Shown one piece after another: positions 2,188 through 6,603 of a DNA stretch of 64,000 bases. The notes beneath the pieces are model-generated. The model saw nothing but the letters and a program-made list of their open reading frames with translations. It was not told the DNA's origin and did no database searches. The stretch comes from an uncultured Verrucomicrobiota bacterium (GTDB lineage Bacteria > Verrucomicrobiota > Verrucomicrobiia > Verrucomicrobiales > V1-33). The position numbers and the translations under genes are program-made. Each line of letters opens with the position of its first letter. Positions within the stretch are counted from its first letter, which is position 1. The DNA lies in the NCBI GenBank assembly GCA_942492905.1, contig OW818657.1:5918188-5982187 (forward strand), written 5' to 3'.

Positions 2188-5100
2188 ATGACTCTCAGAT
2201 ACTCCCTCACCAGCCTCACCGCGCTCATCGCAGGTCCGTTCTGTTTTGCCCAGGAAAGCCAGTATAAAGAAGACTGGCAGCCGTCCCCGACCAATCAGCA
2301 GGGCAAAGCATACCCGCAGGTCAATTCCGAAGGCCGCATCAAATTCCGCATCATCGCCCCGCAGGCCCAAAGCGTGGGCGTCACCTTCCGCGACAGCACC
2401 CCCTTTACCAAAGACGCGGAAGGCGCGTGGACCGGCTACACGCGGGTGCTCGACCAGGGCTTCCACTACTACGCCCTCAAGATCGATGGAGCGGAGGTGC
2501 CTGATCCGAATAGTAAATACTATTTCGGTTCCAATCGTTGGGGCAGCGGGATCGAAATCCCGGCGCACGATCAGGACTTCTACGCATTGAAAAATGTGCC
2601 TCATGGCCATCTGAGGGAAGTCTTCTTTCACTCGAAGAGCACGAACTCCGAGCGCCGGGCCTTTGTCTATACGCCCCCGGACTACGATCAGTCGGCAGAC
2701 AAACGCTACCCGGTGCTTTATCTCCAGCACGGCTACGGTGAAAATGAATACGGCTGGGGGGCGCAGGGCCACGCCGGGCGGATCATGGACAACCTCATCG
2801 CCGAGGGGAAAGCGAAGCCGTTTATCATCGTGATGACCTACGGCATGACCAACGAAATCCGCTTCGGCGGCATGGCGGAATTCAAGATCGAACCGTTCCA
2901 GACCGTGCTCCTTGATGAGTTGATTCCTTACGTGGATGCCAATTTCCGAACACTCGCCGACCAGCCGAACCGGGCCATGGCGGGCCTTTCCATGGGTGGC
3001 ATGGAGACGAAGACGATCACGCTGAAGAACCTCAACGTCTTCTCCCACATCGGCCTGTTCAGCGGCGGCAGCATCGCCCCGGGAGACATCGCGGACATCG
3101 CATCCTTCAAGGAAAAGAACAAACTGGTCTTCGTCAGCTACGGAAGCAGTGAGATAGGAAATGGCAATCAACCCCGCCGTGGCGGCGATCCGAAAGCAGC
3201 TGTGGAAGCGCTGAAAGCAGCGGGTGTAAACAGTGTCTTCTACGTCTCGCCCGATACCGCTCACGAGTGGCAGTCGTGGCGGCGCAGCTTGAAAGAGATC
3301 GCTCCATTGCTTTTCCAGCCCGCTCCGGTGGTCGCCGCGTCTGCGCCTGCTGCAACGGGTGTCACAGGCAAGTGGCATGCGGAATTTGACACTCAGATCG
3401 GCAAGCAGATCTACGACTACACGATCCAGCAGGACGGCCAGACCTTTACCGGCAAAGCAGTCGCGGAGATCGGTGGGAACAAAGTGGAATCCGTCCTGAC
3501 AGAAGGCAAAGTGGACGGCGATAAGGTGTCGTTCATCGAGACGCTGAAGTTTCAGGACAATGAACTGAAGATTGCCTACTCCGGCACGGTTTCAGGCAAC
3601 GAAATGAAGCTGGTGCGCGAAGTGGGCGAAGTGGCAAAAGAAGACGTCTTAGCAAAGCGTGAGGCTCCTGCCGCTGTGCCTCCCCCGGGAAAATCGGCCG
3701 CCGTTCCTGACAGTCCGCGTGGGGCGATCCGCGTGCTTTTTCTTGGCAGCGAGGCCGCTGGCAGCCGCAAGCATTGCCACACAGTGATGCGTGATTTTGG
3801 CCGCGATGCGTTGTGGTTTGACTACACCGCGGACCCTTCGCAGGTAACGCCAGAGTGGATCGCGCAGTTTGATGCCGTGCTGCTGGATGCTCCTGCGGCC
3901 ACATTCCCCGCGCTGGCGGGAGTGCCGCAGGCGAAAGTCGTGACTGTTGATTTCACTAACGCCGCCAGCAATCCCGCGCCGGATGATTTCCTGAGTCCCC
4001 TGAAGGAGAAGCTGCTCACCGCCGCAGGCCCGCAGCGCCGCGTGGAATGGGTGCAGTTCACCCAGGCCCGCGAAGGTGAACAGCGCGAGATGAAGCCGAC
4101 GGTGGCCAACTACGAGCGCCGCCCGCAGCCGCTCACCTATCAGCATCCGCTCAGCGTGAGGGGCAGCATGGAGCGCACCCAGGTCGCGCCGGATCTCCGA
4201 CTCGAACTCTTTGCCGCAGAGCCTGACATCATGAAGCCCATCGCCATGGCATGGGATGAGCGCGGCCGTTGCTGGGTGGCGGAGACGAGTGACTACCCGC
4301 ACGGCGTGACGCCCGGCGGCGAGGGAAATGACCGCATCAAAATCTGTGAGGATACCAACGGCGACGGCAAGGCGGACAAGTTCACTGTTTTTGCCGACAA
4401 GCTGAACATTCCCACCAGCCTCACGTTTGCCAATGGCGGGCTTATTGTCAGCCAGCCTCCGCGCTTCCTCTTTTTGAAGGACACCAACGGCGATGACAAA
4501 GCCGACGTGCGTCAGGACATCATCACCGGCTGGGGCATCGGCGACACGCACGCGCAGGCGAATAATCTGCACTACGGCATCGATAACTGGTTCTACGGCT
4601 GCGTCGGTTATTCGGCCTTCGATGGCACGGTGGGCGGGGAACCAAAGCGCTTCACCCAGGGCACGTATCGCTTCAAGGCGGACGGCTCGGCGTTGGAGTT
4701 TCTTCATCAGTTCAGCAACAACTCCTGGGGCCACAGCGCGAATACCGCCGGCGATCAGTTCGGCGGCACGGCCAATGGCGCGCCGCTTTTCTACGGCGGC
4801 ATTCCGGCCACGCATGTCCCTGCCAGAATGCGGGTGATGACGGCGAAAAAAATCAATACGGAGGACAATGTCCACACCATTACCCCGAACTACCGTCAGG
4901 TGGACGTGATGGGCGGTTACACCGCGGCTGCCGGATCGGCTTTCATCGAATCCGCCAAGCTCCCCGCCCGTCTTCAGGGCATGGCCATGGTCTGCGAGCC
5001 AACCATGAAAACGGTGAGCCTCATGGACGTGAAAGCCGCCGGCGCGGGCATGACGGCGGGCGATGGGTTCAACCTCGTGGCAAGCACAGACGAATGGATG

Positions 5101-6603
5101 TCCCCGGTCTTTGCGGAGGTGGGTCCGGACGGCGCAGTGTGGATCGCGGACTGGCAGAACTACATCATCCAGCACAACCCGACCCCCAGCCAGCGCAGCG
5201 GCGGCTACACCGCAAAAACCGGTCCCGGTGGAGCGCATGAAAATGACCTGCGGGACCACTCCCGCGGCCGCATTTATCGCGTGGTCTGGCGTAATGCCAA
5301 AGACACGGCGGCTCTGCAAAAGCTGAACGCCGCAGACCCCGCGCAACTTGTTGCCGCGCTGGGCAGCGACATCCAGGAGCGCCGCCTCACCGCGCAGCGT
5401 CTGCTTGTTGAGGGCAAAATGACTGCCGCCGCAGAGCCGTTGAAAAAGCTGCTGGCCGCGAATGATGGATCGGTCGCCGCACTGCACGCGCTGTGGACGC
5501 TGCATGGAATCGGCGCGCTGGACGAAGCTGCGCTGAATGCTGCGCTGCTGGCCAAGGACGGTCGTCTGCGGCGGAATGCGGTGCGCGCCCTGACCTCCGA
5601 TGCCGCCGGGCAAAAGCTGTATTTCGGCTCCGGCGTAGTGAGTGATTCCGATCTGGTTACACGCCTCGCCTCGCTGGTGAAGCTGGCCGAATTCCCCACT
5701 ACTCCCGAGATCCAGACGTTGGTGAAAAAACTGGCGGTGGATGGGACCAACCAAGCCGACGAATGGCTCCGCGAGGCCACCCGCGTCCTCATGAAAAAGC
5801 ACAAGGCCGAGGCCACTTACACGGAAGGGCCTAACCTCCTGCCAAATCCTGGTCTCGAAAACATAGGCGCTGACGGACTCCCCGAAGGCTGGGTGAGGAA
5901 CGATGACATCGGGCGAAGTGGCCCGCTCCGGGCTCCCTCCAACGCTACCTGGAAAATGACGGATGCCGGCCGCAACGGTTCCAAAGCCGTCACCTGCAAC
6001 GTGCCGGAGACCAGTTTCTCTGCCATGTTTACCGAAATACCGCTGAAGCCCAACACCGAATACCGCCTCAGCGGATGGGCCAAGGCGGCCAATGTTACCG
6101 GTGGCCGCATCGGCATCAGCGACCGTTTCAGCCGCGTGGAGACAGACCGTCTCACAAGGAGTGCGGACTGGACGCTCATCGAAGCCACCTACAACAGTGG
6201 CAGCACTCCCAAGGCCAGCATCATGTTGTCCCACTTCGGAAAAGGGGACAGCACCTTCGATGACCTGAAGTTCTGCGAACTCATCCCAAAGGCCGAACCT
6301 GACGCCGACGCGGTCGCCGCCGGTGACGTCAAACGCGGCGAGGAAATCTTCTGGAAGCACCCCATCGCAGCCTGCATGAACTGCCACATGCTCGGCGGCA
6401 AAGGCAGCCCCGTCGGCCCCGCGCTGGACGGCATCGCGAAAACCAAGGACGAAGCCTATCTGGTCCAAAGTCTGGAGGACCCGAATGCCAAGCTGGCCGA
6501 AACCTACAAAGCCACGCCGGTTTCCCCCATGCCGCCGATGCGTCTTATCCTGAAACCGCAGGAGTTTGAGGATGTGAAGGAGTTCCTCAAATCCCTCAAA
6601 TAA
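2188..6603 (+). CDS. 1471-aa fusion: CE1-like esterase + ~100-aa module + PVC-type membrane-bound-dehydrogenase beta-propeller domain + HEAT repeats + CBM-like jelly roll + C-terminal cytochrome c
   Basis: Signal peptide. Esterase motifs [34 protein letters not shown] (about aa 1-385). Module [18 protein letters not shown]... (nt ~3364-3663). [35 protein letters not shown] resembles the TIGR02604-type dehydrogenase domain. HEAT-like RRLTAQRLL...[28 protein letters not shown] is CBM-like. Heme motif CMNCH at nt 6373-6387, followed by the PMPPM region. Confidence 0.85.

Follow-up and report, generated by a model that had tools for sequence, protein, structure and literature searches.

Modular xylan esterases in which catalytic modules are joined by linkers are represented by the xylanase/feruloyl-esterase fusions of family NF041944 and by XynZ (1JJF) and XynY (1GKK) of C. 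thermocellum. In these known fusions the partner of the family CE1 carbohydrate esterase is a hydrolase (GH10 or CE6), a dockerin or a carbohydrate-binding module (CBM). A gene at positions 2188 to 6603 of a 64,000-nucleotide stretch of DNA (the window) from an uncultured Verrucomicrobiota bacterium (contig OW818657.1) encodes a protein that is likewise predicted to be exported, has its modules joined by a linker and lies in a xylan cluster; however, its CE1 esterase is fused to a heme-containing propeller protein of approximately 975 amino acids (aa). The esterase part has the same CBM48-CE1 layout as the CE1 esterases with an N-terminal CBM48-like domain (PDB entries 6RZO, 6RZN, 7B5V, 6NE9, and 6MOU).

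For the partner protein, full-text literature searches for "DUF7133," for "PVC-type heme-binding," and for feruloyl esterase in combination with cytochrome c and Verrucomicrobia returned no match. The only biochemical report on this architecture concerns Lac161_ORF7 (AGW45552), a 109-kDa protein with TIGR02604, HEAT, and cytochrome c domains from a Chthoniobacter-like soil cosmid, which released glucose from lactose with a Km of 1.8 mM and a kcat of 13 s-1 and was proposed to found a new beta-galactosidase family (Cheng et al. 2017, PMC5342196). In work by Naumoff, Dedysh, and co-workers, TIGR02604 proteins are counted among putative glycoside hydrolases with a beta-propeller fold (PMC7397252, PMC5352709). 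Hence, the initial annotation was out of date in saying that no substrate had been assigned to the family. Compared by domains and size only, Lac161_ORF7 resembles the partner in its TIGR02604, HEAT_2, and Cytochrom_C/TIGR02603 domains, its verrucomicrobial origin, and its size (109 kDa versus 976 aa), and its reported CBM16-like similarity is consistent with the jelly roll of the window protein. It differs in having no esterase, in being a reported lactose hydrolase, and in its genomic context (an enolase-like gene and DUF377).

Other heme proteins of the PVC (Planctomycetes-Verrucomicrobia-Chlamydiae) group possibly process carbohydrates nonhydrolytically (He et al. 2017, PMC5615132). The PSCyt/PSD proteins of freshwater Verrucomicrobia, of which such action is suspected, are like the window protein in being PVC-restricted, heme-c-containing, and multidomain, often with CBMs, but they belong to other domain families (PF07635 etc.), and neither a DUF7133-type propeller nor an esterase fusion has been described for them (PMC5615132). 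Approximately 22,000 bacterial six-bladed pyrroloquinoline quinone (PQQ) propellers, including some from Verrucomicrobia, are paired with cytochrome c551 or c4 (bioRxiv 10.64898/2026.07.10.737718). Characterized PQQ dehydrogenases of this fold, namely, the soluble glucose dehydrogenase (sGDH) of A. calcoaceticus (1C9U/1CQ1), E. coli Asd/YliI (2G8S), and TTHA0570 (2ISM), share with the window propeller the predicted six-bladed fold, DxDxDG-type metal loops, a periplasmic location, and pairing with c-type cytochrome and ThuA domains. Sequence relatedness to them is weak and confined to the last blades, with approximately 10% identity and with no recognizable RNP or GPxGGDE motif, and, unlike them, the window protein has HEAT repeats and a jelly roll inserted between propeller and heme. 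A further likeness is to the fungal enzyme CcPDH (6JT5, 6JWF; PMC4332668, PMC5960967), an AA8 cytochrome b-AA12 PQQ propeller-CBM1 protein that can drive lytic polysaccharide monooxygenases (LPMOs). Both proteins are extracytoplasmic and belong to a plant-cell-wall-degrading context, and in each a single chain holds an sGDH-like propeller, a cytochrome domain, and a carbohydrate-binding module. However, CcPDH has an N-terminal cytochrome b, whereas the window protein has a C-terminal cytochrome c; it is eukaryotic and lacks an esterase, and its defined PQQ signature residues are not identifiable in the window propeller.

The window gene is a single uninterrupted ATG-initiated open reading frame (ORF) on the plus strand, encoding 1,471 aa followed by a stop codon, exactly as the initial annotation had described it. 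All of the domains named there were recovered in the same order by hidden Markov model (HMM) scans and by fold and profile matches, and the motifs it quoted were located at aa 266 (GLSMGG), 359 (HEWQSW), 688 (AWDERGR), 702 (DYPHG), and 1396 (CMNCH). Two domains had been overlooked, an N-terminal CBM48-like Ig domain (aa 22 to 135) and a ThuA-like alpha/beta half domain (aa ~513 to 650). The features of the gene, all on the plus strand, are as follows.

2188-6603, plus strand: whole fused gene, an ORF with full-length orthologues that are 70 to 92% identical in independent assemblies
2188-2250, plus strand: predicted Sec-type signal peptide, aa 1-21 (...GPFCFA/QES), read from the sequence, its position agreeing with the signal peptides of orthologues
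2251-2592, plus strand: CBM48-like Ig domain preceding CE1, aa 22-135, from alignment with the N-terminal part of PDB 6rzo, 6ne9, and 7b5v
2593-3321, plus strand: CE1 feruloyl-esterase catalytic domain, aa 136-378, from PF00756, the esterase half of NF041944, and PDB 6rzo
3340-3672, plus strand: module of ~100 aa (mod100), aa ~385-495, from identity to segments of the neighboring esterases EstC and EstA
3673-3723, plus strand: Pro/Ala/Ser-rich linker at the fusion junction, aa 496-512, from comparison with standalone forms
3724-4137, plus strand: ThuA-like alpha/beta half domain ("Ncore"), aa ~513-650 (RVLFLGSE...HCH...FDAVLLD), from predicted topology and a weak hhalign match
4162-5289, plus strand: DUF7133/TIGR02604 six-bladed beta-propeller, aa 659-1034, from HMMs, an AF2 model, and Foldseek
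5338-5799, plus strand: HEAT-type helical repeats, aa ~1051-1204, from an alphaRep profile and model helices
5818-6288, plus strand: CBM-like beta-jelly roll, aa ~1211-1367, from Foldseek and a subthreshold CBM_4_9 match
6325-6600, plus strand: predicted class-I cytochrome c, aa 1380-1471, from PF00034 and PDB 7zs0

The part that follows the junction (the core) is a complete copy of an exported protein of approximately 975 aa (976 aa here) that is highly conserved in Verrucomicrobiota. Long ORFs are also present on the strand opposite the fused gene, at 3649-6468 (minus strand, 939 aa) and 2095-3378 (minus strand, 427 aa); these are probably stop-poor frames of a coding region of ~60% GC rather than real genes.

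To establish how far the fusion extends, a protein search covering 5.8 billion proteins (NCBI genomes, JGI and ENA metagenomes, and Logan assemblies) was combined with a locus scan using one genome per GTDB species. At least 24 clusters (90% identity) of 1,360 to 1,502 aa combine the same esterase, DUF7133, and cytochrome c domains and are 70 to 92% identical. Fused genes were found in at least eight Verrucomicrobiota metagenome-assembled genomes (MAGs; species-level genomes); the nearest MAGs are labeled Verrucomicrobiales or Akkermansiaceae. In one locus (L005), synteny with the window extends through the entire gene array, the gene for a GSDH-cytochrome c protein included. The initial annotation had allowed for a sequencing or assembly error at the junction; GC content is continuous over it, and the same frame and junction recur in at least 24 independent clusters, so the fusion is not such an error.

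At least four types of junction were distinguished: CBM48-CE1-mod100-core, as in the window; mod100-CBM48-CE1-core; CBM48-CE1-core; and an EstA-type esterase joined to the core. In two loci (L010, at 9926-14539, and L044), the orthologue of estA, the first esterase gene of the window cluster (81 to 84% identity), is itself fused to the core, and the CBM48-CE1-mod100 segment of the window type is absent. The fused CE1 domains are 44%, 57%, or 83 to 96% identical to that of the window protein, while the propeller is constant at 87 to 98%; therefore, a single partner has acquired different esterase paralogues. Independent fusions are seen in two more distant proteins: P0028 (2,340 aa) has the reverse order ThuA-DUF7133-cytochrome c-...-CBM48-CE1-mod100-CE1, and P0029 has the order CE1-CE1-DUF7133. 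The linker in all fused forms is a Pro/Ala/Ser low-complexity segment of 25 to 40 aa, situated where the standalone forms carry a signal peptide and a low-complexity N terminus.

The survey of orthologues that the initial annotation had proposed revealed fused, de-fused, and adjacent-gene loci, i.e., both the joined and the split state. Proteins P0122 and P0123 (loci L001 to L003 and L017) consist of the EstA signal peptide (85% identical) and a C-terminal remnant of mod100 followed by the core, a structure indicating that an in-frame deletion removed two esterase bodies to give de-fusion alleles; in the same loci the downstream estC orthologue is also shortened, to 314 aa. In L011 and L020 a separate core gene lies directly downstream of a gene with two CE1 domains. 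These two loci were considered as frameshifted pseudofusions, which was ruled out as the core ORF begins at a non-ATG codon right behind the stop codon of that gene and encodes a signal peptide of its own. In L004 an unfused core gene lies ~4 kb from GH10 and esterase genes. Fused and unfused forms are interleaved in a neighbor-joining tree of the core, which was not bootstrapped.

Unfused relatives of the core carry their own signal peptides, the close ones being P0121 to P0137; standalone relatives of 60 to 70% identity make up the rest of the 120 best matches, and 7,736 of the 8,000 scored candidates pass an E value of 1e-10. The propeller alone is 72 to 88% identical over the standalone Verrucomicrobiota loci surveyed. 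One unfused paralogue of 976 aa (P0142) is encoded on the same contig as the window gene and is 71% identical to the core overall and 88% in the propeller. Family-wide, the fusion is rare, as had been claimed: none of the 149 best 50%-identity representatives of an exhaustive HMMER search carries the esterase and the core together. Within the compared sequences the esterase-core link is recurrent and has probably been selected; recurrent fusion with conserved adjacency and occasional fission is the classic signature of a functional partnership. The suggestion that the fusion offers a functional handle is thereby strengthened beyond what was originally supposed, given the recurrent independent fusions and the conserved adjacency.

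The identity of the N-terminal half is clear. PF00756 (Esterase) matched aa 149 to 322 (E = 4e-21, 76 bits against a cutoff of 22), and the esterase half of the xylanase/feruloyl-esterase model NF041944 matched aa 22 to 377 (E = 2.5e-130), falling below the whole-protein cutoff because the match is partial. PDB 6rzo, a "ferulic acid esterase," aligned end to end with aa 22 to 378 (E = 2e-151, ~70% identity by eye over 350 residues), and the catalytic motifs GLSMGG (266 to 271) and the His in TAHEW (357 to 361) were identical in this alignment. GLSMGG is retained in all 25 fused proteins and TAHEW/TKHEW in 24 of the 25; the CxxCH motif is kept in all fused proteins, and the propeller motifs are kept in nearly all. 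From these alignments, assignment of the N-terminal half to the CE1 feruloyl-type esterases is safe. The mod100 segment had no Pfam match; as the initial annotation had claimed, it is common to the neighboring esterases, with aa ~379 to 500 sharing 53% identity with aa 19 to 127 of EstC (6695-7021) and 34% with aa 38 to 148 of EstA (719-1051). The module is attached to CE1 esterases at variable positions, and its known occurrence extends to Opitutaceae and to a MAG of Terracidiphilus (Acidobacteriota) (L052 to L055).

At the other end of the protein, PF00034 (Cytochrom_C) matched aa 1382 to 1471 (E = 3e-11, 44.9 bits against 21.3), and the domain profile matched PDB 7zs0 (E = 1e-21) and also SoxX. 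Of the models used in the initial annotation's proposed check, PF00756, TIGR02604, and PF00034 all scored above threshold, while the second heme model, TIGR02603, reached 52.6 bits against a cutoff of 68.15, with only profile positions 1 to 63 of 134 matched. The heme site is C1396-M-N-C-H1400, with a candidate Met ligand in S-P-M-P-P-M (from 1447), and the two Cys, the His, and SPMPP are invariant in 64 relatives. The domain is thus classed as a class-I c-type cytochrome with a single predicted heme site. Between propeller and heme, the HEAT region matched the profile of alphaRep HEAT proteins (E = 1e-7) and formed helical repeats in the model, PF13646 being recorded for relatives. The modeled jelly roll is CBM16/22/4-like, with Foldseek matches to 3oea and 2zew (CBM16), 2xon (CBM61), 4xup (CBM22), and 1k42 (CBM4-2) at target TM scores of 0.6 to 0.73; CBM_4_9 (PF02018) scored 19.7 to 22.2 bits on it, under the gathering score of 25.9.

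Upstream of the propeller, a beta-alpha-beta topology was predicted for the ThuA-like domain with a predicted local distance difference test score (pLDDT) of ~90. It aligned collinearly by hhalign with the N-terminal half of ThuA in ThuA-GSDH proteins at a low probability of 36%, and a full PF06283 ThuA domain occupies the equivalent position in P0028. Neither PF06283 nor any other Pfam model matched aa 378 to 661 even at an E value of ≤10, and the domain is for this reason named a ThuA-like half domain and not a member of ThuA. The model of the full core had a pLDDT of 79, and jelly-roll matches dominated when it was used with Foldseek. Its top match, GH183 (8ic1; TM score 0.23, root mean square deviation 25), was dropped as it was absent from the propeller-only top 50.

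The propeller itself is assigned by profile to the PVC-type heme-binding CxxCH family (TIGR02604/DUF7133). PF23500 (DUF7133) matched aa 659 to 1033 over profile positions 4 to 382 of 385 (E = 1e-106, 358 bits against 27), and TIGR02604 matched aa 669 to 1034 (242 bits against a cutoff of 122). When the PDB was searched by sequence, neither the protein nor a profile built from 64 sequences gave a match in the propeller or the ThuA-like domain. An AlphaFold2 (AF2) model of these two domains (pLDDT 84, predicted TM score 0.87) contained 24 strands, which fits six blades. In Foldseek searches of the PDB with the propeller only, the leading matches were 5min, 1cq1, 2ism, 6jt5, 3das, 2g8s, and 6i1q (E = 3.5e-10 to 1e-7, target TM scores 0.45 to 0.6, ~10% identity), comprising PQQ soluble glucose dehydrogenase, TTHA0570, HHIP, CcPDH (AA12), Asd, and T. 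reesei AA12. Other six-bladed propellers occupied the lower ranks, and no glycosidase propeller was among the top 50 PDB matches. There are further links to the GSDH family: its proteins share the ThuA-propeller(-cytochrome c) layout, some database proteins score with both PF23500 and PF07995 (GSDH), and the neighboring GSDH gene product has a subthreshold DUF7133 match. A collinear alignment of the core with ThuA-GSDH proteins had low probability.

A family-wide signature was derived from an alignment of 99 propellers at 40 to 78% identity. Two DxDxDG-type metal loops (DTNGDxKAD; D722/D726/D730 and D765/D769/D773) and D786-T787-H788 are invariant family-wide, as are R694, R828, E837, N844-N845, W847, N863, R903-Q904, and D906 and, further on, D968, W970, H996-N997, R1022, R1028, and R1031. 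These residues, a set about as polar as the PQQ-binding residues of sGDH, look like a cofactor or substrate pocket that does not match the known PQQ-site pattern. A multi-His, CuZ-like metal cluster was considered and rejected, as seven to eight His are conserved in close relatives but only H788 and H996 are conserved family-wide.

The fused gene is the second in a tightly spaced plus-strand array with gaps of -4 to 111 nucleotides, downstream of a divergent regulator gene. The other genes are as follows.

1-510, minus strand: MarR-family regulator, divergent from the cluster
608-2128, plus strand: estA, encoding a signal peptide, mod100, a CBM48-like domain, and CE1
6641-7879, plus strand: estC, encoding a signal peptide, mod100, and CE1
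7893-9056, plus strand: estD, encoding a signal peptide, CBM48, and CE1
9060-10475, plus strand: MFS_2 glycoside symporter
10472-12130, plus strand: GH43 beta-xylosidase-like protein, cytoplasmic (without signal peptide)
12127-13413, plus strand: GH10 xylanase, exported
13450-14310, plus strand: SASA-type esterase
14422-16992, plus strand: exported protein with GSDH (PQQ-type sugar dehydrogenase), PKD, and cytochrome c551-like domains

The cluster thus holds four CE1 esterase genes, including the fusion, all with signal peptides, and both GH10 and GH43 genes are present in it, which bears out the xylan context described in the initial annotation. The GSDH domain of the last gene has the canonical PQQ-sGDH motifs (the His in SHCGAGLAW, FGVRNPF, and GPEGFDELN) and is followed by a cytochrome c551-like site (CFACH) and a C-terminal extension of ~190 aa without annotation; the gene fits the published description of bacterial PQQ propellers paired with cytochromes (bioRxiv 10.64898/2026.07.10.737718) well and is kept in the syntenic locus L005 with 85% identity. 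The independent fusion P0028 likewise has a MarR gene immediately before it (L056, 4658-5131). MarR regulators beside two independent fusion architectures may point to hydroxycinnamate-responsive control. In the xylan transcriptome of Roseithermus, AA12 genes were not regulated.

Elsewhere in the window, a 915-aa N6-DNA-methylase/MmeI-like protein, which may be a single-chain restriction-modification enzyme, is encoded directly after the xylan cluster (17758-20505, minus strand). A glycogen-type set comprising DUF3417/phosphorylase, GT5 starch-synthase-like, and CBM48-GH13 genes is present at 30758-37090 (plus strand). The region 51361-55241 encodes a DUF642-containing protein of 840 aa (minus strand) and an HpiC1-cyclase-like protein of 495 aa (plus strand), and 55343-59914 (plus strand) encodes a 1,523-aa protein with three Lamin-tail (LTD) domains and a CotH kinase-like domain.

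The explanation we favor, which we regard as evenly poised between right and wrong, is that the protein is an exported bifunctional esterase and heme-linked oxidoreductase acting on feruloylated xylan fragments. The CBM48-like and CE1 part would work in the periplasm or on the cell surface, stripping ester substituents (feruloyl or other hydroxycinnamoyl groups) from arabinoxylan fragments, while the flexible Pro/Ala linker would tether the esterase to the core and the jelly roll, together with the esterase, would hold the protein on feruloylated xylo-oligosaccharides. The propeller would then oxidize a hydroxyl or hemiacetal of the de-esterified carbohydrate or another product of the esterase, a phenolic being less likely, at a site centered on D786-T787-H788 together with several Arg, Asn, and Trp residues that are likewise invariant, with a cofactor that may be PQQ/Ca-like or other. 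Electrons would flow to the protein's own His/Met heme c and from there to periplasmic carriers and terminal oxidases. In favor of this explanation, a bona fide PQQ-type GSDH-cytochrome c551 gene ends the same cluster. More tentatively, the DUF7133-HEAT-CBM-cytochrome c proteins could represent a new extracytoplasmic class of carbohydrate/phenolic redox proteins, in effect a new bacterial auxiliary-activity family, with a cofactor site akin but not identical to the one in PQQ sGDH and acting, in this clade, obligatorily downstream of feruloyl esterases. Such a protein could, for instance, supply respiration with electrons by oxidizing the reducing end of xylo-oligosaccharides or their arabinofuranosyl side chain once this is de-esterified, and the obligatory order would explain the repeated fusion of esterase and core.

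Several observations weigh against the oxidoreductase explanation. The initial annotation called the propeller a dehydrogenase; the PQQ sGDH/AA12 fold agrees with that name, but it is the modeled fold only to which the name refers, as PF07995 had no match in the fused protein at an E value of ≤0.01 and the RNP PQQ-binding motif of sGDH had no clear counterpart, the region falling in an alignment gap. Alignment of the propeller with the GSDH family by hhalign was significant only in the last blades (78 to 79 columns, probability 67 to 75%), and the invariant H788 came to lie opposite the catalytic (general-base) His of sGDH only in a low-confidence relaxed extension. No PQQ-synthesis genes were found among the scanned window ORFs of ≥250 aa. 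Promoter and terminator scans performed at chance level and were uninformative on operon structure, so cotranscription of the fused gene with the xylanase genes is suggested by spacing and orientation only. The surroundings of standalone paralogues (L042, which holds a close homologue of P0142, and L027) contain no carbohydrate genes; hence, the function of the core may be general and not xylan specific. No DUF7133 protein is known to have redox activity, and the one biochemical report on the architecture claims hydrolysis of lactose.

The alternative that survives best, although we consider it unlikely, is that the propeller is an unclassified beta-propeller glycoside hydrolase and the protein an esterase/glycosidase, e.g., one that removes side-chain sugars after deferuloylation, with a heme that is structural, sensory, or unrelated. 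It must be kept because of the Lac161_ORF7 report and the listing of the family among putative glycoside hydrolases; the invariant carboxylates D786, D799, E837, D906, D968, D981, and D988 could be acid/base residues, and esterase-glycosidase fusions such as CE1-GH10 are common. However, the lactose activity is a single report on a protein purified from S. meliloti, with a coupled glucose-oxidase readout and neither catalytic residues nor mutants, and no independent confirmation was found in the literature searched. No variation is seen in the heme ligands, and all top relatives that contain the propeller and exceed ~1,040 aa have a cytochrome c, which a hydrolase would not need. The closest structural neighbors, moreover, are PQQ dehydrogenases and not glycoside hydrolase propellers.

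Next in rank, and also improbable, is a noncatalytic core that serves as a carbohydrate-binding electron-transfer or scaffold protein, e.g., one that passes electrons between the respiratory chain and the GSDH-cytochrome c protein or further redox enzymes of the periplasm, with the esterase merely anchored to it. HEAT repeats and CBM-like domains are typical interaction modules, the cluster also encodes a genuine PQQ-type dehydrogenase-cytochrome c, and a c-type cytochrome domain reducing bacterial LPMOs is the subject of PMC8981238. Against such a role, the propeller is the most conserved part among the Verrucomicrobiota relatives surveyed (72 to 98%, versus 28 to 92% for the jelly roll), its family-wide invariant polar residues are dense and active-site-like, and the GSDH-cytochrome c gene co-occurs in one syntenic locus only (L005).

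Ranked after it, and improbable too, is a redox module that oxidizes or reduces phenolics (ferulate, p-coumarate, diferulate, or lignin-carbohydrate compounds) in detoxification or in the breakage of cross-links. The partner is always a feruloyl-type CE1 esterase and never a glycosidase, and fusions usually link consecutive steps, ferulate being the direct product of the esterase. MarR-family regulators, which commonly sense hydroxycinnamates or their coenzyme A esters, lie next to the fusion in two independent architectures. The folds closest to the propeller, however, are those of sugar dehydrogenases, and we know of no sGDH-like propeller that acts on phenolics; the module also contains a CBM-like jelly roll, and standalone paralogues that are 56 to 71% identical to the core occur without esterases. 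That the fusion is an assembly join or frameshift artifact, for which the unfused close relatives (P0121 to P0137) and the adjacent-gene versions in L011 and L020 might be cited, is vanishingly improbable and in effect ruled out by the comparative data, as the same frame and junction recur in many independent assemblies drawn from four separate sources of data, among them long MAG contigs and one contig of 6.3 Mb, GC is continuous, a clean Pro/Ala linker replaces the standalone signal peptide, and the unfused forms have signal peptides of their own.

Every component family of the protein is already known, and the fusion is a recurrent "Rosetta-stone" link between a characterized type of esterase and a large PVC family whose function is unsettled. 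DUF7133/TIGR02604 proteins are very numerous and have no accepted function, being annotated as "dehydrogenase-like" and, in one paper, as beta-galactosidase; one planctomycete genome holds 20 copies (PMC7397252), and the search combining esterase and propeller yielded 24,771 representative clusters at an E value of ≤1e-3. As the same pairing arose several times, it is a usable clue to the function of this propeller family and makes that function directly testable, and the esterase fusion together with GH10/CE1 adjacency limits the list of candidate substrates to feruloylated fragments of arabinoxylan and the products formed from them. The recurrent fusion bears on the question left open by He et al. 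(2017, PMC5615132) of nonhydrolytic carbohydrate processing by PVC heme proteins. If redox activity is found, the proteins would represent a new type of bacterial auxiliary activity in hemicellulose degradation, and in the abundant Verrucomicrobiota of fresh water and soil the deconstruction of polysaccharides would be tied directly to respiration in the periplasm.

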